A model generated the notes under the pieces. The model was not told the origin of the DNA and did no database searches. It worked only from the letters and a program-made list of their open reading frames with translations. A program made the translations under genes and the position numbers. Of a stretch of DNA of 64,000 nucleotides, positions 24,911 through 45,560 are shown piece after piece. The DNA comes from Mobula hypostoma (Eukaryota), in contig NC_086097.1 of NCBI RefSeq assembly GCF_963921235.1, positions 176,702,001 through 176,766,000 on the forward strand, written 5' to 3'. Each line of letters starts with the position of its first letter. The first letter of the stretch is position 1.

Positions 24911-27900
24911 TGTTGCAACGAATGAGGCGAACCCAAGCACAGGACACAGGCACGGAGATTTAGTTAGGATGCAGACACGGGCATGAGCGTTGAATGGCAA
25001 ACAGGAGGGAGAGCAGGAAGACAAGAGACAGGCAGAATTTATCTTGACACGGAGAGACTGGGTTTCACAGGTAAACCTCAGAACTGGAGTAGAACTTAGA
25101 AAACTGATCTGACACTGGGAGATTGAGTTTCACAGATAAATCTCGGTACTGAAGCAAAAATTAAGACACACAATCCTAAGCGGCCGCACTGGCAAAACCA
25201 ACAATCTGGCAACTAGTGGGTGCAAAGCCGGGCTTCTTATGCTGCAGATATTGAGGAAAACCAGGTGTGTCGTCATCAAAGGGAATTAGGAGAAAATGGC
25301 GAATTAACGGTCAGGACTGTGACAGGCCCGCCATCCCCCCTTAACGAGAGCCTCCACGCGAACCACCAGGATTGTCTGGATTGTCTCGATGGAAATCACG
25401 GATGAGGGAAGGGTCCAGGATGAAGGAGTGGGGAATCCAGGTGTGCTCCTCAGGGCCGTAATCCTCCCAATCGACCAGGTACTGGAGACACCTGCCTCAA
25501 CGGCGCACATCCAGTATTCACCGGATGGTGTACGCTGGGTAATCGTCAATGACCCGGGTGGGAGGAGGAGGTTCAGCAGGAGGGCACAAAGGGCTGACAG
25601 ACACAGGTTTCAATTGGGAGACGTGGAACGCGGGATGAAACTGCATGGATCTGGGCAGTTTGAGTCTGACTACCAAGGGGTTGATAATGCTCTGAATCTC
25701 GAATGGCCCGAGGTAGCGAGGGGCGAGTTTCTTGGGGGGATGTCTTTTGACGAGAGCCAAACCTTCTGACCAGGCCAATAATTAGGTGCATGAATTCGAT
25801 GGCGATCGGCAATCCTTCTGTTGCAGTCGGCTGAGCGGAGCAGGGCTGCGCGTGCATCCTTCCAGATCTTGCGGCACCGGCGGGGATGAGCCTGAACTGA
25901 AGGCACAGCAATGTCATCTTCGTGGGCAGGAAACAGAGGGGATTGATAGCCAAGGGAGCATTCGAAGGGAGACATTCTGGTGGTGGTGCTGACCAGGGAG
26001 TTGTGGGCATACTCCACCCAAACGAGATGGGTGCTCCAGGATGACGGGTTGTTGGCGGTTATGCAGCGCAGTGCTTCCAAATCCTGGTTTGCTCGTTCTG
26101 TTTGACTATTAGTCTGTGGATGGAAGCCAGAAGACAGGCTTACTGAGGCTCCAAGGGCTTGACAAAAGGATCTCCAGAATTGAGAGGTGAATTGGGGGCC
26201 CCAGTCAGAAACAATGTCAGAGGGAATTCCATGAAGGCGGAAGACGTGATGGACAAGGAGGTCGGCTGTCTCATGGGCTGTAGGGAGTTTGGGAAGGGCT
26301 ACAAAGTGCACGGCTTTGGAGAAGCAGTCCACCACGGTGAGTACGGCAGTGTTCCCATGTGAAGTGGGTAGTCCAGTGACGAAATCCAGAGCAATGTGAG
26401 ACCAAGGGCAGCTAGGGACAGGTATGGGACGAAGCAACCCAGCAGGTGTTCAATGGAAAGCTTTTCCGTGGGCACACACAGTACAGGCAGAGACGAAGGG
26501 GCGAGTGTCAGCATCCATGGCGAGCCACCAGAAATGACGCTTCAGAAGTGACAGAGTTCAATCGATTCCAGGATGGCAGGTGAACTGGGAAGTAGGCCCC
26601 CACTGGAGAACCTTAGACCGAACAGAATCAGGCACAAAGAGGCCACTGGGGGGTCCATTGCCTGGGTCAGGTTGGGTCCGTTGGGCCTCTTTGACTACAG
26701 ACTTGATCTCCCAGGTGAGGACAGCCACAACACAGGATGGTGAAAGGATGGTATCGGAGTTGGGAAGGCCCTCCTCAGAGATGTATTGACTAATTATGAT
26801 CAGAGATTAAGGGAGCTAGGGCTTTACTCTTTGGAGAGAAGGAGGATGAGAGGAGGCATGATAGAGGTGTACAAGATAATAAGAGAAATAGATAGAGTGG
26901 ACAGCCAGCGCCTCTTCCCCAGGGCACCACTGTTCAATACAAGAGGATATGGCTTTAAGGTAAGAGGTGGGAAGTTCAAGGGGGATATTAAAGGAAGGTT
27001 TTTTACTTAGAGAGTGGTTGGTGCGTGGAATGCACTGCCTGAGTCAATGGTGGAGGCAGATACACTCGTGAAGTTTAAGAGACTACTAGACAGGTATACG
27101 GAGGAATTTAAGGTGGGGGGTTATATGGGAGGCAGGGTTTGAGAGTCGGCACAACATTGTGGGCTGAAGGGCCTGTAATGTGCTGTACTATTCTATGTTC
27201 TATGTTCTAAAGAGAGCATCGGGCTTCCCGTTCTCGGAGCCAGGACTATAAGTGAGTGTGAGTCTGAAATGGCCAAAAAATAATGCCCAACAGGCTTGGC
27301 GGGAATTTAGGTGTTTGGCGGTTTGGATGTATGCAAAGTTCTTGTGATCTGTCCAGACAATAAATGTATGTTCTGCTCCCTCCAGCCAGTACCTCCACTC
27401 CTCCAAGGCGAGTTTGACGACCAGCAACTCCTGGTCCCCAACGTCGTAATTCCGTTCAGCGGGGGATAGACGATGAGAGAAGAAGGCGCAGGGATGGAGC
27501 TTTTGGTCTAGGACAGAGCATTGGGAAAGGACCGCTCCCACCCCAGAGTCAGGGGTGTCGACTTCCACAATGAATTGACGAGAGGGGTCAGGTTGGGCCA
27601 GGATGGGAGCGGAAGTGAAATGCCTCTTTAGCTTCGAGAAGGCTGAGTCCACTTTGGGGTCCCAGTGAAAAGGGGTCGTAGGAGAGGTGACTCGAGTAAG
27701 GGGCTGCCACCTGGCTGTAATCCCTGATGAAGCGACGATAAAAGTTTGTGAACCCCAGAAATCACTGGGGTTGTTTGAGCGTCATGGGTTTTGACCACTC
27801 TGCCACTGCCCGGATCTTTTCAGGATCCACCCTCACTTGCCCCCTCTCAATGATGTACCCCAGAAAACTGACAGAAGGGACATGAAACTCACACTTCTCT

Positions 27901-30543
27901 GCCTTAATGAATAGCTTGTTCTCCAAAAGCCTCTGAAGAACATGACGGACATGGTGGGAGTGTTCCTGAAGACTGCGGGAGAAGATTAGGATGTCAACCA
28001 AATAAACAAAAACGAAACGGTTAATGAAGTCCCTAAGGACATCGTTTACCAGGGCTTGGAAGACGGCGAGAGCATTGGTGAGACCGAGTGGCATGACCAG
28101 ATATTCAGAATGATCAAGAGGGGTGTTAAATGCTGTTTTCCACTCATCTCCCTCCCTTATCCTGACCAGGTGATAAGCACTCCATGGGTCCAACTTAGAG
28201 AAAATTGTGGCTCCGTGAGGTGGTTCGAAAGCAGAGTTGATAAGGGGCAGGGGATACGTATTCTTTATGGTGATGCTGTTCAGGCCACAGTAGTCAAGGC
28301 AGGGGCACAGTGAGCCGTCTTTTCTCCCCCACAAAGAAGAAACCTGCGCCTACAGGAGAGAATGAGGGTCAGATAATGCCAGCCGCGAGAAAGTCATTTA
28401 GGTAAGCCTCCATTGCTTCCCTTTCTGGTCGAGACAGGTTATACAGCCAACTGGTGGGTAGAGGGGCTCCGGGGAGAAGGTCAATTGCACAATGGTAAGG
28501 GCGATGTGGAGGCAGGGAAAGAGCCCGTTGCTTACTAAACACTTCTCCCAGGTGGTGATACTCTGCTGGAACCTTGGATAAGTCGGGGGTTCAGAGGCAG
28601 ACGAGGTCATGGTGACCTCCACTGGGGAAAGGGCTGATTGTAGACAAGTGGAGTGACAGCTGACTATCCTCCCAGTGGACCAGTCAATGCAGGGGTTATG
28701 GCGGCTTAACCAGGGGTAACCAAGAACTATAGGAGCTTGAGGAGAGGAAATTAAATTGAATTGTACCTGTTCCCGATGGTTCCTGGAGAGAAGGAGAGAC
28801 AGGGGTGGTGTGCAGTGTGTGACTCGGGCCAGTAATCTACCGTCCAGTGCCCGGGCTTCCAGGGGGGCACGCAACGGCTCACGAGGAATTCTGGCCCAGA
28901 AAGCTAAGTCTTCATCCAAAAGGTTTCCCTCGACGCTGGAGTCTACTAGTGCTGACAGAGGCAGGGACTGTTGGTTGTAACATAAAGTAGCTTGAAGCTG
29001 CATCCGGGTTTGGGGGACGGAAGGGAATGTTGTCTGGCTCACCAGGGTCCCCCTCTCTACTGGTGAGTCTTCCCTTTTTGGCTGAAGGGGACAGGTAGCA
29101 CGGAAGTGGCCGGACTGGCTGCAATATGGTCGCTCACCCACTCTCAATCTCCGGAGTCGTTCTGTGGAGGAAAGACAGTTCCGCCCCAGCTGCATGGGTT
29201 CCTCTCCCAGGTCAGTGGAAACGGCCGGGCTGGAAACTACTCTAGGAGCAGGAGGAGGAGAGAGACTTGTTCTGGCGGGAGGCGGTAATGAGTGCCGAGG
29301 AGTGGCCAAAGGCTGTGGACGACCAGTTCTTTCTCTATGGCATTCTCGGAGACGATTGTCCAACCTGGTGGCTAGGGAGATCAAGGAACCCGGGCTGTCG
29401 GTGTCGTCTCTTGCCACCAACTCGTCTTTTACCATGTTGCTGAGACCATTCCGAAATAACCCTTGGAGTGCCTCATTGTTCCACTCCGAGTCGGCCGCTA
29501 ATGTCCGGAACGCCACAGAATATTCGGCAACACTGCGTGAACCCTGACTGAGAGTGAGTAGACATTTGGCGGCGTCTTTACCACGGACGGGGTCGTCAAA
29601 GATCTTTCTCATTTTCACGATAAAGGTGGCAAAAGAAGAGCAGATATCCGGTTGGCTATCCTCAGCAGCTGTGGCCCATGCTAAGGCACTTCCCCGCAAC
29701 AACCTCATGATGTAATCAATCTTTGATTTATCCGTGAAGTACATGGACAACTGCTGTTCGAACACCAAGGAGCACTGAAGAAGGAAGGCCCGGCACTTTC
29801 CCAAATCCCCAGCGTAATGCTTCGGTTCAGGTACGTGATGCTGTCTTGGCGGGAGTGTTACTGGCATGTAGGGGATTGCCGCTACAGGCTGTCTGGGCTG
29901 GTCAGACAGGGTTCCAGGAGTGGATAGGGTAAAATGAGTGGATACACGGTCCACCTGGTCACCAATCTTTGTTATGTCAGCAGACAGGGAACGGAGGTTC
30001 TTCATGACCTCCTGGAGGAGTTGGTCGTACAGACTCAGTAGGGAACCCTGGCTGGCGAGGGCTTGTTGAAGAGTATTCGTGTCCACTGGGTCCATAATGG
30101 CCAGATCGTTCTGTTGCAACGAATAAGGCGAACCCAAGCGTAGGACACAGGCATGGAGATTTAGTTAGGATGCAGACGCGGGCGTGATTGTTGAATGGCA
30201 AACAGGAGGGAGAACGGGAAGGTAGGAGACAGGCAGAATTTATTTTGACATGGAGAGACTGGTTTTCACAGGTAAACCTCAGAACTTGAGTAATACTTAG
30301 AAAACTGATCTTGACACAGAGAGACTGAGTTTCACAGATAAATCTCGGTACTGAATCAAAACTTAGGACACACAATCCTAAGCGACCGGGAAACGTTAAT
30401 TACCACACTGGCAAAACCAACGATCTGGCAACTAGTGGGTGCAAAGCCGGGCTTCTTATGCTGCCATTCTTGATGAAAACTAGGTGTGTCATCATCAAAG
30501 GGAATTAGGAGAAAATGGGGAATTAACAGTTGGGACTGTGACA
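24911..30543 (-). mobile_element. Full-length Ty3/Gypsy chromovirus (sushi-like) LTR retrotransposon, inactivated
   Basis: LTRs 24911-25324 and 30112-30543 (TG...CA); 5-bp TSD TAAGG; gag-protease 28398-30137, RT 27762-28334, RNase H 27200-27652, integrase 25670-26437 ([20 protein letters not shown]), GPF motif and chromodomain ([13 protein letters not shown]). Confidence 0.97.
26790..27207 (+). mobile_element. 5'-truncated CR1 inserted in Gypsy pol
   Basis: [20 protein letters not shown]; tail ttctatgttctatgttcta; possible ctaa TSD. Confidence 0.92.
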
Positions 30544-31269: not shown

Positions 31270-31426
31270 TGGAATGTGAATGAGCTTTTCATGCTAAGTT
31301 AGACTGATCATTTTCATTATCACCCAAGGTGGCTTCAACACCAACCTTTCATCTCTCAGACTGGTATTCATCTGGAAGAGCGGGAGAGGCACATAAACGT
31401 GGTTAAAGTGAAAGTAAATGAAATAA

Positions 31427-31921
31427 CGCTCAGAGAGATTCGGCGGGGGGGCCATGGTCGAGTGGTCGGTGACATGGGCTGGCTCCCCCATTGGACTTAG
31501 TCTGGTGAGGAGGGTGTGAGGACACCCTGCAGGACTGAAAAAACAAGACCTGACAAAGGGCAGATGAGCTCCTTGTGAGCCAACGGCCATCTTCCATGGA
31601 AGAGATTAAAGCCTCACCACGTATCTACGAATCGTATGCTATGCACCTAGTTAGAAGAGATATGATGAACTTGGGCACTGCACCATGTACCTGGACCTGC
31701 CCAAGGCCTCTGCCTAAGGAAGGGCCGAGCTCGAAGAAGCGGCCGCAGCTGGAGGCTGACTCGGCCTCGGGCTCGAGTTAGGCGGCGGCGGACGGTGCCA
31801 AGGCGGTCAGCAAGAAGAAACTGGAGGAGAGGCTGTACTTGGTGCTGTCACAAGATCAAAGAAGATGGAGGTGCATAGCCACCAACACCGGATTCGGGAC
31901 GGCACCCACTGACTGACTGAC
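31427..31921 (+). mobile_element. Non-autonomous RTE-type retroposon carrying a host-gene fragment
   Basis: tgaaataa direct repeat (31419-31426, 31922-31929); RTE-like ORF start MMNLGT; RTE-like end QDQRRWRCIATN; (ACTG)n tail. Confidence 0.7.
31678..31848 (+). pseudogene. CYHR1: Circularly permuted fragment of the CYHR1/ZFTRAF1 5' coding region
   Basis: CTMYLDLPKASA* precedes EGPSSKKRPQLEA...KKKLEERLYLVL; recalled CYHR1 order is PPKKRLR...[25 protein letters not shown]. Confidence 0.82.
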
Positions 31922-32980
31922 TGAAATAAGAGGGTTATATTTTGTCTTTGACTCAGGAGGTTGCCTACCCAGGAAGAAACTGAGTGAAACTGAGTGAATG
32001 AACACCACTATACCTTGCTATTCCTCTTTCACACTGTTAATTTATTTTTGGTGTTATTTATAGTCATTTGTAATGCCTGCACTGTAATGCTTCAAAACAC
32101 AAAAAAAATTCACGACTTAATAAACCTGATTCCGAGAGTCAGATGGGCCATCACAGACTCCTTCACATGTGTTGGAAGGACACTGGACCTGTTGTGGAGG
32201 ACTTTATGGTTTGATATCTTGTGATGCCACTACAACAGATTTTGTGGCCCTAGACACAACTGCTGGATCTTGCTGTGCACAGACTGAGACTGCTCTGCAA
32301 ATGTCTGACACTGCCTTCTCTGAGCCCCCGACAGGCAGCCCCTTCCTGGAATTGGGTTGTAGAGGCAAATGTGCCCACCAACACTTCTACTTCCTCATAC
32401 AAGCCAAAGAAATTCGACATTTCTCTCTTAGCTCCCTCCAACTTTCATTGATCCACCATAAAAAGCATCCTGTCTGGATGTAACGTAGATGGTATGGCAA
32501 CTGTTCTGCACGTGACCACAAGAAGCTGCAGAGAGTTTTGGACACAGCTCGGCACCTCACAGGGAAGAACCTCCCCTCTATGGCCTCAGTAAATCAGCCA
32601 GCATATTTGCATGGGCATCTCAGGAAAGCGGGGTGACAGGAGCTAGGGATCGCCCATTGATATTGGTATTGGTAGGGTTGAGGGTCCATTGTATCATTCA
32701 GGAGGTCCATTCAAGAGTCTGACAGCAGCAGGATAGACACTGTTCTTCAGCTTTATTGATAGGCTATTTTAGGCTATTTTATTTTTGAGGTACAGAAACA
32801 TTTTACCAGGATGCTGCTTGGATTAGAGGGTATGAGGTATTTGGGGAGGCTCAAGAAACTTGGGTTGTTTTCTCTGGGGTGGCAGAAGCTGAAAGGAAAA
32901 TAAGTTTATAAGCATATGAGAGGCATAGATGGTCAGCCTTTTTCCCAGCGTAGAAATGTTAAGTAATAGAGGCCATAGAT

Positions 32981-40964: not shown

Positions 40965-43744
40965 GATGCTGGTCTTTTCGGAGATTTAAGCTTATTGAGA
41001 ATTTGCAGATCTTCCATTATCTGTTCATCTGTTTACAAGTAATTTAACAGCGCAGGTGCAGGTTTTTGTCTTTTGTCGGTAATTGGAACAGGGTCATTAG
41101 GTCTCCTCCTTAGTTTCCTAGTCGTTATTGACTTTACCTCTATAGAAACTCCTGTGAGTTCTATTGTTAGTCTCTCATTCTCAATCATCTATTTTCTTTT
41201 CTTCTAACTCAATCTTCTTATCTTCAAATTCCTTCACTGCTGCTTTCTTTCACTTGTTCTGTCTCCAGTTGCAGAAAAAGTTCTGCATTTCATATTCTTT
41301 CCTTGTATTGTTGATCTGGTTTCTTCATCCTTTTCTGATACTCCTGCAAAGTGCCTTCCTGCAACTGCTGTAGCTGTCTTTTGAGAGATGTCAATTTCTC
41401 CTGGTACATCTGCTGTTTTACTTCCAGGTAGACTTCATCATCCTGCTTATTGGCAATATCTGTCTCCCTTGTATCCTCTGTATCATCATCAGAGTCGCTG
41501 CCACGGATACTGCATTTTTCCTCATCATCAACGCTGTCTAGCTCTTCCTCATTGTAGTAATAGAAACATAGAAACATAGAAAATAGGTGCAGGAGTAGGC
41601 CATTCGGCCCTTCGAGCCTGCACCGCCATTTATTATGATCATGGCTGATCATCCAACTCAGAACCCAGCCTTCCCTCCATACCCCGTGACCCCTGTAGCC
41701 ACAAGGGCCATATCTAACTTCCTTTTAAACATAGCTAATGAACTGGCCTCAACAGTTTGCTGTGGCAGAGAATTCCACAGATTCACCACTCTCTGTGTGA
41801 AGAAGTTTTTCCTAACGTCGGTCCTAAAAGGCTTCCCCTCTATCCTCAAACTGTGACCCCTCGTTCTAGACCTCCCCAACATCGGGAACAATCTTCCCGC
41901 ATCTAGCCTGTCCAATCCCTTTAGGATCTTATACGTTTCAATCAGATCCCCCCTCAATCTTCTAAATTCCAACGAGTACAAGCCCAGTTCATCCAGTCTT
42001 TCTTCATATGAAAGACCTGCCATCCCAGGAATCAATCTGGTGAACCTTCTTTGTACTCCCTCTATGGCAAGGATGTCTTTCCTCAGATTAGGGGACCAAA
42101 ACTGCACACAATACTCCAGGTGTGGTCTCACCAAGGCCTTGTACAACTGCAGTAGTACCTCCCTGCTCCTGTACTCGAATCCTCTCGCTATAAATGCCAG
42201 CATACCGTTCGCCTTTTTCACCGCCTGCTGTACCTGCATGCCCACTTTCAATGACTGGTGTATAATGACACCCAGGTCTCGTTGCACCTCCCCTTTTCCT
42301 AATCGGCCACCATTCAGATAATAATCTGTTTTCCTATTTTTGCCACCAAAGTGGATAACTTCACATTTATCCACATTAAATTGCATCTGCCATGAGTTTG
42401 CCCACTCACCCAACCTATCCAAGTCACCCTGCATCCTCTTAGCATCCTCCTCACTGCTAACACTGCCACCCAGCTTCGTGTCATCCGCAAACTTGGAGAT
42501 GCTGCATTTAATTCCCTCATCCAAGTCATTAATATATATTGTAAACAACTGGGGTCCCAGCACTGAGCCTTGCGGTACCCCACTAGTCACCGCCTGCCAT
42601 TCTGAAAAGGTCCCGTTTATTCCCACTCTTTGCTTCCTGTCTGCTAACCAATTCTCCACCCACACCAATACCTTACCCCCAATACCATGTGCTTTAAGTT
42701 TGCACACTAATCTCCTGTGTGGGACCTTGTCAAAAGCCTTTTGAAAATCCAAATATACCACATCCACTGGTTCTCCCCTATCCACTCTACTAGTTACATC
42801 CTCAAAAAATTCTATGAGATTCGTCAGACATGATTTTCCTTTCACAAATCCATGCTGACTTTGTCCGATCATTTCACCGCTTTCCAAATGTGCTGTTATC
42901 ACATCCTTGATAACTGACTCCAGCAGTTTCCCCACCACCGACGTTAGGCTAACCGGCCTATAATTCCCCGGTTTCTCTCTCCCTCCTTTTTTAAAAAGTG
43001 GGGTTACATTAGCCACCCTCCAATCCTCAGGAACTAGTCCAGAATCTAACGAGTTTTGAAAAATTATCACTAATGCATCCACTATTTCTTGGGCCACTTC
43101 CTTAAGCACTCTGGGATGCAGACCATCTGGCCCTGGGGATTTATCTGCCTTCAATCCCTTCAATTTACCTAACACCACTTCCCTACTAACATGTATTTCG
43201 CTCAGTTCCTCCATCTCACTGGACCCTCTGTCCCTTACTATTTCTGGAAGATTATTTATGTCCTCCTTAGTGAAGACAGAACCAAAGTAATTATTCAATT
43301 GGTCTGCCATGTCCTTGCTCCCCATAATCAATTCACCTGTTTCTGTTTGCAGGGGACCTACATTTGTCTTTATCAGTCTTTTCCTTTTTACATATCTATA
43401 AAAGCTTTTACAGTCCGTTTTTATGTTCTCTGCCAGTTTTCTCTCATAATCTTTTTTCCCCTTCCTAATTAAGCCCTTTGTCCTCCTCTGCTGAACTCTG
43501 AATTTCTCCCAGTCCTCAGGTGAGCCACTTTCTCTGGCTAATTTGTATGCTACTTCTTTGGAATTGATACTATCCCTAATTTCTCTTGTCAGCCACGGGT
43601 GCACTACCTTCCTTGATTTATTCTTTTGCCAAACTGGGATGAACAATTGTTGTAGTTCATCCATGCAACCTTTAAATGCCTGCCATTGCATATCCACCGT
43701 CAATCCTTAATAGTCGACAATGGATAGAGGAGAGCTGTGGACAT
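40960..43744 (-). pseudogene. SUDS3: Processed SUDS3 (Sin3 complex SDS3) copy, 3'-truncated, split by a CR1 (parts 43744-43708 and 41563-40960)
   Basis: MSTALL..(V)[15 protein letters not shown]...[31 protein letters not shown]...[14 protein letters not shown]...[22 protein letters not shown]; no introns; stops and short deletions. Confidence 0.95.
41564..43707 (-). mobile_element. Young 5'-truncated CR1 with uninterrupted 681-aa RT frame
   Basis: ORF 41658-43703 with [25 protein letters not shown]; 6-bp TSD taatag (41558-41563, 43708-43713). Confidence 0.97.
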
Positions 43745-45560
43745 CTTCCCTGCCAAGCTGCCCTCCTTTGTTGATACATCTAGTGCCTTGATGGTGTGCC
43801 AATCCAGCTGGATTTTCCTGAGCCATTCACGTCCCAGCGACGGTGGTCCTCCATTTTTCAGTACATAGAGGTTCAGCTGCTGTGTTTTGTCTCCGTATGT
43901 CACTGTCACTTTAATTTTGCTTTTGGGACACACTTTCTGTCCTGTGTAAGTCTTTAGCAGTAGTGTAGTTCGTTTCAGAGGTATGTGAGAAAACAGTTGT
44001 TTGTAGTTGTGTACAGAGATCACTGTTAAAGCTGAGCCTGTGTCTAACTCCATTTTCATTATCACGCCTGCCACTTGTGGAGTGATCCTTATTACTCTTT
44101 GATCACCTGTCTCTTCCATGTTGTGAAGTGGCAGACAAGACAATTCATTTTCATCTGAGTCTTTTTCATCAGAACTGCTTTCTTCCATTTTGTGTATATT
44201 ATTGTGTTTTCCTTTCTGGGCTTTCTTGTTTCTCTGTATTTTGTCCTTTTTCTGCTGTTTACTAGCTTTGCATACTCTGCCAATGTGGCCCTGTTTGCCA
44301 CAGTTTTGGCATTCTTTGTCTTTAAACCAACAGTCATACAGGTCATGTGACCTGTTCCCACAACGGTAACATTTCTTTCCTTCATTTCTGTTCAGTGACA
44401 TTTTATTCATAGCATATTCCAGAGATTTTTGTTGTATCTCGGAAGCACCCCATGCCGCTATTTCCATTGATATTGCAATGTTGAGCGCTTTCTCGAATGT
44501 AAGGTCTCTTTCACACAGAAGCTTCATCTGTGTTGTTTCACAGTGCATGCCACACACTAACCTGTCCCTCAATGCATCTGATAGACCAGCTCCAAATTGA
44601 CAATGTTCTGATAATTTGCGCAATTCAGCACAATATTCAGAAAGGCTTTCATTTTCACTCTGATTCCGATTGTGAAATTTAAATCTTTCAGCAATGACCA
44701 TTGGTTTGGGGTTTAAATGCAGTTGGAGAGTGTCGACTATTTGCTTGAACATTTCGTCAGCTGGCTTTTCGGGGGTTAACAAGCTCCGTAGCAGGCCATA
44801 TGTTTTTGCTCCCATAATACTGAGTAAGACTCTGGCTTTCTTTTCATCCTTAACACCGTTAGCCTCACAATATAACTCCACTCTTTTAATGTAAGTTGCC
44901 CAATCTTCAATGTCACTATCAAATGCTGTTCCAATCATCACCATCTTTGTTATGTTAATTAAGCCCCGTTCTCCCCTTATTTTCCTTTTTGATTCATGTG
45001 TCCTTTTTGCTAGCGCCACGAGCACACTCCGTCTAGACGTGTGTGTGTCGCTCCTTTTTATCTCCCTTCTGGGGCAGGCAGACCCGCAGACCCTCAGCCC
45101 CTGGGGGTCAGCGCCGGCTGTGGTCTCGGCTGGACGTACTGTGGATCTGACTGTGTCTCTTGATCTCCCGATGTTCCCGATCCCGGCTGTGCTCCCGCTT
45201 CCTTTCAGACTCGCAGCCTCACTCTGCCTCCTTCTCCTGCTCCTTGGCTCGTTCCTTGCGCTCTTCCTCCAAGTGTCATTATCAACTAAAACACAACGTT
45301 CCGATAAGGTGTAGGTTCATTAACCTCGTCGCCAATTTGTTGTGTATGTGGCCCAGTTACACAACAATGCTATTAATAAAAATGCTGCACACGGGAGCTA
45401 AGTTTTATGGTTCTTTACTGGCATAATCCAAACTTGGCACACACGTACAGATCAATACGTGCCTAATAGCGCATGCTCAATATGCGCGTAATAGCGCATT
45501 CAACGACGTGTTACTAAAACATAAATTAGTCCCTTATTATACTGTAGGCTATATGGTACA
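43745..45560 (-). mobile_element. Gypsy (Mag-like) 5' half: LTR, PBS, open gag-protease
   Basis: LTR about 45338-45560; PBS TGGCGACGAGG (45334-45324, complementary to the tRNA-Ser(GCU) 3' end); LRDRLVCG; two CCHC knuckles CYRCGNRSHDLYDC and CQNCGKQGHIGRVC; protease LDTGS...LGREWL. Confidence 0.92.
45062..45272 (-). pseudogene. ACIN1: ACIN1-like C-terminal coding fragment with stop codon and short 3' UTR, inside the Gypsy leader
   Basis: LEEERKERAKEQEKEAE*GCESERKREHSRDREHREIKRHSQIHSTSSRDHSRR* versus recalled Acinus end [39 protein letters not shown]; low complexity reduces certainty. Confidence 0.7.

Follow-up and report, generated by a model that had tools for sequence, protein, structure and literature searches.

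The window, which is the whole 64,000-nt stretch of DNA that was analysed, contains one copy of a repeated element of ~570 nt that is built from a LINE 5' part, two blocks (A and B) of the first coding exon of the host gene ZFTRAF1 (CYHR1), a LINE 3' end, and an (ACTG)n tail. The two halves of the ZFTRAF1 piece are swapped relative to the gene, and this permutation is real and exact. It is almost certain that the stretch is the middle module of a family of non-autonomous, LINE-derived retroposons with several hundred copies. A sequence-only reading made earlier had taken it for a pseudogene or a DNA-circle insertion made at this site; this had to be given up, as a fixed module of a repeat family flanked by target-site duplications (TSDs) was found instead. 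A one-off event at the window locus is thereby ruled out, the locus holding an ordinary TSD-flanked copy of a dispersed family. The window copy spans 31427-31921 between 8-nt TSDs, and its features are as follows.

31419..31426, plus strand: left target-site duplication, 8 nt, identical to 31922-31929
31427..31676, plus strand: 5' module, derived from the partner APE-RT LINE's 5' region, 5'-truncated, matching long LINE copies at 81-91%
31427-31490, plus strand: remnant of the family's fold-back head, left arm absent
31638..31879, no strand: 11-nt inverted repeat (31638-31648 / 31869-31879) with one arm in the 5' and one in the 3' LINE-derived module, on either side of the captured piece
31641..31916, plus strand: mini frame that opens at the LINE's first in-frame ATG, crosses all three junctions, and closes at the LINE's own stop; 93 codons in the family majority, 91 here, with one premature stop
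31677..31716, plus strand: block A, ZFTRAF1 exon 1, 40 nt, ending 4 nt before the splice donor and starting at the base after B's end in the gene
31717..31848, plus strand: block B, ZFTRAF1 exon 1, 138 nt (132 nt here), sense, upstream of A in the gene
31849..31921, plus strand: last ~70 nt of the partner LINE (ORF end, stop) and (ACTG)n tail, joined bluntly to B
31922..31929, plus strand: right target-site duplication, overlapping the tail repeat

The retroposon family and its partner LINE

A 172-nt query from the window returned 894 candidates, and the best 40, which were scored, all match end to end; the best 39 non-self matches of the 894 show 88-91% identity over the whole 172 nt. The copy number is roughly estimated at ~860, from 384 matches to a pattern for the permuted join and from the fit of this pattern to 13 of 29 copies picked by their 5' module. 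Flanking repeats of at least 8 nt are present in 36 of 101 copies, compared with 0.6% of shuffled pairs, and the 5' ends are staggered among copies, i.e., 5' truncation is variable. Divergence from the column majority has a median of 6.4% (28 copies) and amounts to 7.6% in the window copy, of which the 5' module (~318 nt at full length) starts near the loop of the head hairpin, is without the left arm, and has the 7-nt and 10-nt deletions of the family. The window locus itself is ordinary, being one decayed copy in repeat-rich DNA. Roughly 1.3 kb upstream of the element, minus-strand frames of a Ty3/gypsy-type LTR retrotransposon (gag, RT, RNase H, and integrase) are found at 25670-30164, and 41658-45316, also on the minus strand, contains long frames of 538 aa and 682 aa, of which the latter has an RT domain; together they likely represent a two-ORF LINE.

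The 3' end of the element led to its partner. The tail pattern with an upstream side other than ZFTRAF1 gave 193 matches, 26 of 30 fetched tail loci run on into a LINE ORF, and an upstream walk reached LINE copies whose 5' region matches the 5' module of the short element at 81-91%; the 3' part in the window is 92% identical to one LINE copy. The LINE frames contain the Pfam domains Exo_endo_phos and RVT_1, and the nearest homologues of the LINE protein are ~1000-aa APE+RT products on 3.2-3.7-kb contigs. The single ORF of ~1000 aa with AP endonuclease and RT, the length of ~3.5 kb, and the microsatellite tail correspond to the RTE architecture, which makes the LINE a putative member of the RTE clade. 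In the shared tail, the LINE (25 copies) and the short element (64 copies) have an identical column majority over 40 nt and the same median divergence of 7.5%, and this equal divergence suggests that both were active in the same period. One LINE copy (L131, G000:C2:26354700-26360500) has an inverted 5' segment.

All 29 copies that were picked by their 5' module run into block A (27 are whole, 2 break off early), and the eight off-pattern 5' hits all bear the insert. An empty two-ended element had no match to the patterns used, which are exact and would miss a diverged precursor. Because no empty element was found and the insert is present in all 5'-module copies, capture and internal deletion look like one event. 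With respect to known classes of short retroposons, neither a tRNA in the head nor an Rfam family at gathering score was found in any of five loci, nor was a ribozyme, and Pfam gave no domain for the two short window frames; the head derives from the LINE and not from tRNA, 5S, or 7SL, as the head of a SINE in the strict sense does. A partial literature search yielded no published description of this family, which repeat databases such as Repbase and Dfam, or paper supplements, may hold.

The donor exon and the permuted join

The open B frame of one copy (L002) gave six protein matches among 185 candidates, all of which are ZFTRAF1/CYHR1 from cartilaginous fishes or lamprey, with a best E-value of 1.5e-7. 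A search of the 3.48-Gb genome with a pattern for the join in gene order (B then A) gave one match, compared with none for a control pattern, and this sole match (locus L031) is ZFTRAF1 coding exon 1; the donor is single in the genome. The protein matches and this exon bear out the CYHR1 identity given in the sequence-only reading, and the A-before-B order reported there was likewise confirmed, with both blocks translating as it had stated and the order B-A being unique in the genome. The exon comprises 327 nt, lies inside a CpG island (69% GC and a CpG o/e of 1.0 in the region around it), and is directly followed by GT, while exon 2 resumes in phase 0, 91,110 nt downstream, behind a pyrimidine-rich AG. 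As judged from this GT and the in-phase exon 2 behind AG, the splice donor is real. Tandem duplication at the donor, which had been named as a possible explanation of the swapped order, was looked for and is ruled out: the 178-nt piece is present once in 115 kb around ZFTRAF1, and the gene-order match is the only one genome-wide.

The captured piece consists of 178 nt (138 nt of B and 40 nt of A; 71% GC) in the order A-B. The block bounds, previously placed at 31678-31718 and 31719-31848, were corrected to 31677-31716 (A, 40 nt) and 31717-31848 (B). The earlier description of almost exactly one turn of a ~170-nt circle was right about the single turn, the size being 178 nt and the turn being exact: in the gene, A begins at the base after the end of B, with no gap and no overlap. 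About one base had been thought missing; in fact, 81 of 103 distinct copies keep the gene's G at this opening point, and its loss from the window copy is, by comparison with these copies, CpG decay. When the insert was compared with gene A followed by gene B in the 103 distinct copies, three fixed substitutions and a mean identity of 92.3% were found. The piece is in sense orientation and wholly exonic, and it ends 4 nt before the real splice donor; the end of A had been taken for an exon end, and a donor with its GT does follow there, but A stops short of it. Both outer joins are blunt, with zero microhomology and no bases added, and a 3-nt AGG repeat is present at both circle ends.

At the inner join, the base 4 nt before the donor adjoins AGG in mid-exon. 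The permuted join has 384 exact pattern matches, and the short form is present in 100 of the 100 matches listed. The clean back-splice form, which is two bases longer and which the sequence-only reading had thought the family consensus might show, had no match genome-wide with up to 2 mismatches allowed. Copies with a gene-like base beside the join still have the short form (14 of 14), and this base looks like the result of back-mutation in them. An older, more gene-like subfamily was considered and rejected: apart from a single copy at a single site, the copies with the gene-like base at the join do not match the gene at the two other positions. Either a back-splice or closure via the AGG repeat would yield a circle of 180 nt, i.e., two bases more than the 178 nt observed. 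An AG precedes B, as had been anticipated, and stands in exact register with the exon's last AG. This candidate acceptor is a GAG with 53% pyrimidines upstream (36 AGs are listed in exon 1), while the best acceptor-like site of the exon is a CAG with 76% pyrimidines, 24 nt further upstream, with another AG between. A branch-point-like motif is located at most 50 nt upstream of B, and another AG precedes the join AG. Splice acceptors are preferentially YAG and the first AG past the branch point. The first exon of ZFTRAF1 has no annotated acceptor.

Several irregular copies were observed around this join. L067 and L122 have in common a 13-nt deletion near the A-to-B join, at a place where two near-identical 8-mers stand 13 nt apart; the second 8-mer spans the join, and templated insertion is therefore another reading of the join. 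An inversion is present in L081, and L066 is interrupted after the first few bases of A.

Fold-back head and mini reading frame

Full-length copies (e.g., L073, L037, and L032) open with a ~135-nt fold-back hairpin (z = -7.4 versus 200 shuffles; 15 G-U pairs), both arms of which originate in a single deleted stretch of the LINE's 5' region. The rearrangements of the master comprise the fold-back and deletions of ~100 nt, 7 nt, and 10 nt. Substitutions in the head were scored between the column majority of 13 full-length copies and that of 9 LINE copies. In the hairpin region, 11 of 13 substitutions are A-to-G on the RNA strand (8 in the right arm and loop, 3 in the left arm) and 2 are of other types, whereas in the next 195 nt of the 5' module none of 55 A's is changed and 4 other substitutions are found (Fisher p = 3e-8). 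The differences between the two arms, which are independent of the choice of parent, are mainly A/G (9) and C/T (4). The head likely preserves, as a fossil, edits that ADAR made in a duplex and that became fixed when the master was reverse-transcribed; ADAR is assigned as the enzyme from the A-to-G duplex signature. The fold-back head with its clustered A-to-G changes indicates that the master passed through RNA and through template rearrangement, and it speaks for an RNA phase in the history of the master but not in that of the captured piece. Judged by its signature, the head documents a rare case in which RNA editing of a transposon master became heritable, and no description of a comparable edited master was found in a partial literature search. 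The family's 5' ends form one cluster at the start of the full-length element (23 of 101) and another around positions 19-25, in the left arm of the hairpin.

The mini frame, which holds the basic KKRPR stretch of ZFTRAF1 in its native frame, is open in 19 of 72 scorable copies, the other 31 of the 103 being without the anchor. In a chance control, 16% of 20,000 random permuted exon-1 pieces gave such an open frame. The 178-nt form stays open, while a 180-nt form would stop at codon 81 of 93. No clear sign of selection on the mini frame was seen among copies in indels, 62 of 84 of which are frame-shifting, or in transition rates, the non-CpG replacement-site rate being 0.73 of the silent-site rate, uncorrected for base composition. 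The frame may be due to chance, or may have acted as a filter on which master spread.

Capture route and known systems

How circular RNAs or small DNA circles return to genomes is unsettled, and the mechanism of circRNA retrotransposition has been called mysterious by Dong et al. (PMC4897178). It is tentatively proposed, as something quite possible, that a small RNA circle from ZFTRAF1 exon 1 was opened once and captured in the single ancestor of the family. The proposed route would involve four steps: I) exon-1 RNA would have been looped at or next to the splice donor, either because its ends were trimmed and then ligated or because an aberrant back-splice occurred with the loss of two bases; II) the loop would have been cut once, at B|A; III) the reverse transcriptase would have left a short LINE 3' fragment for the cut 3' end (B), read across the join as far as the cut 5' end (A), and switched from there to a LINE 5' fragment, so that ~3 kb of LINE would have been replaced in one event; and IV) the LINE protein would have recognised the 3' end that was kept and mobilised the product in trans. 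End-to-end template jumping is a property of non-LTR reverse transcriptases, and the proposed route would require it of this LINE as well.

Given the zero-gap geometry, one cut in a closed loop is the simplest account of the permutation. That the loop consisted of RNA is favoured because the piece is sense and wholly exonic, ends 4 nt from the donor, and comes from a first exon before a 91-kb intron, and because the turn is exact, the outer microhomology is zero, capture coincides with the internal deletion, and the master underwent RNA-level events. Sense orientation, first exons, and a long next intron are also the profile described for mRNA/LINE-1 chimeras (PMC13174262), although long introns may be common in a 3.5-Gb genome, which would weaken this argument. 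As intact RNA circles are described to be copied by LINE reverse transcriptases in a rolling manner (PMC11331410), a single exact turn is in better agreement with a circle that was cut once than with an intact one. Against an RNA circle stand the join, which in every copy seen is two bases short of a clean back-splice, the weak GAG acceptor with its better CAG 24 nt upstream, and the size of 178 nt, 71% GC, and CpG-island origin, which fit mononucleosome DNA circles as well.

These last features are central to a rather unlikely alternative, in which a DNA microcircle (178-180 bp, nucleosome-sized, from a CpG-island first exon) would have been opened at one point and used as a patch for a double-strand break at which a LINE copy had lost its interior, this copy then becoming the master. 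Germline eccDNA includes a GC-rich class of 175-185 bp that is enriched at gene 5' ends and closed by microhomology (PMC10581685), and a swapped block order is an accepted mark of circular DNA intermediates (PMC7450558). The piece has the ~180-bp size, the GC-richness, and the 5'/CpG-island origin of such microDNA, its donor region has 69% GC and a CpG o/e of 1.0, and the 3-nt AGG repeat is found at both circle ends; yet closure via this repeat predicts the two bases that are absent from the join, which is 2 nt shorter than the repeat would give. Moreover, an end within 4 nt of a splice donor would then be a coincidence (estimated at a few per cent), the sense orientation would be a coin toss, and both outer joins are without microhomology. 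It is unlikely, too, that the piece passed through no covalent circle, i.e., that an exon-1 RNA fragment was cut once, with its halves held by base pairing or in one particle, and that reverse transcriptase or end joining took up the halves in swapped order. One cut would give the same zero-gap geometry, other rearrangements of the master (the fold-back and the ~100-nt, 7-nt, and 10-nt deletions) would be in keeping with such an event, and Dong et al. mention such a route as one that can imitate circRNA pseudogenes (PMC4897178). In the predicted mRNA fold, pairing between the circle ends is possible (top 5.5-8.4% of window pairs at the same distance) and the bases immediately 3' of the cut come out as unpaired, but the end pairing is non-significant and vanishes in the pre-mRNA fold (top 34%), and one more independent join is needed.

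The strictest form of the RNA-circle proposal and of the sequence-only reading's back-splice idea, a spliceosomal 180-nt circRNA from the donor to a cryptic exon-1 AG with two bases lost later in the master, is improbable. The register of this AG with the exon's last AG means that one 2-nt deletion would suffice, a branch-point-like motif lies within 50 nt upstream, and the master carries other small deletions; moreover, the mini frame stays open in the shorter form and would be closed at codon 81 of 93 in the 180-nt one. However, no copy has the clean join and all 14 gene-like copies are short, while the acceptor would be a weak GAG that is not the first AG after the motif, in a first exon with no annotated acceptor. 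The fuller scenario built on the RNA circle is doubtful: here, a non-LTR reverse transcriptase would have captured a covalent circRNA of a host first exon, and this would have been multiplied ~850-fold at the core of a retroposon, with a master that had fixed an ADAR-hyperedited head and a frame between LINE start and LINE stop. If true, a fossil circRNA would have become a mobile element in a non-mammalian genome, and RNA editing would have been inscribed in the germline. The capture route is testable, since the donor, the LINE partner, and each of the three joins can be read to the single base and the ancestral state is fixed by hundreds of copies.

Among known systems, the element resembles bipartite (ORF-absent) non-autonomous LINEs of the RTE, Ingi, Vingi, and R2 clades, e.g., Bov-A, RTESINE1/2, and WALLSI3 (Kojima 2018, PMC5786205), in that it joins the 5' part of one LINE to the 3' end of the same LINE, has a microsatellite tail, bears marks of retrotransposition, is without a small-RNA head, and would be mobilised in trans. 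Bipartite LINEs, as described in the available part of that report, consist of LINE-derived 5' and 3' parts only, whereas here 178 nt of host exon, in permuted order, replace the interior, the fold-back head is A-to-G hypermutated, and a frame links LINE start and stop; the family is thus a variant rather than a plain member. SVA_F1 (MAST2 exon 1) and the chimpanzee STK40-SVA likewise contain a host first exon that was captured once and amplified in a non-autonomous retrotransposon, but in the accessible text their exon is colinear and spliced to the 5' end, while here it is internal, permuted, and blunt-joined (Damert 2018, PMC6139936). The mRNA/LINE-1 chimeras also have a sense first exon that ends at or near the donor ahead of a very long intron; those described in the portion available are colinear single insertions at the LINE 5' end and not amplified families (Law and Burns 2026, PMC13174262).

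With circRNA-derived pseudogenes, e.g., the 33 mouse circRFWD2 copies (Dong et al. 2016, PMC4897178), the element has in common a join that is non-colinear relative to the parent gene and near a splice site, no poly(A), and many retroelement-associated copies. Those pseudogenes, as far as the consulted text goes, join the annotated donor and acceptor of different exons, whereas here one end is mid-exon, the parent circRNA is putative, and the join is not exactly at donor and acceptor, being either 4 nt short of the donor or the product of a 2-nt deletion. Swapped blocks with one closing and one opening point are shared with duplications via circular DNA intermediates (PMC7450558), and size, GC content, and 5' position with the ~180-bp germline eccDNA (PMC10581685). 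The integrated circular-DNA cases published in the available parts of these two reports are 20-600 kb and single-copy, while the piece described here comprises 178 nt inside a retroposon.
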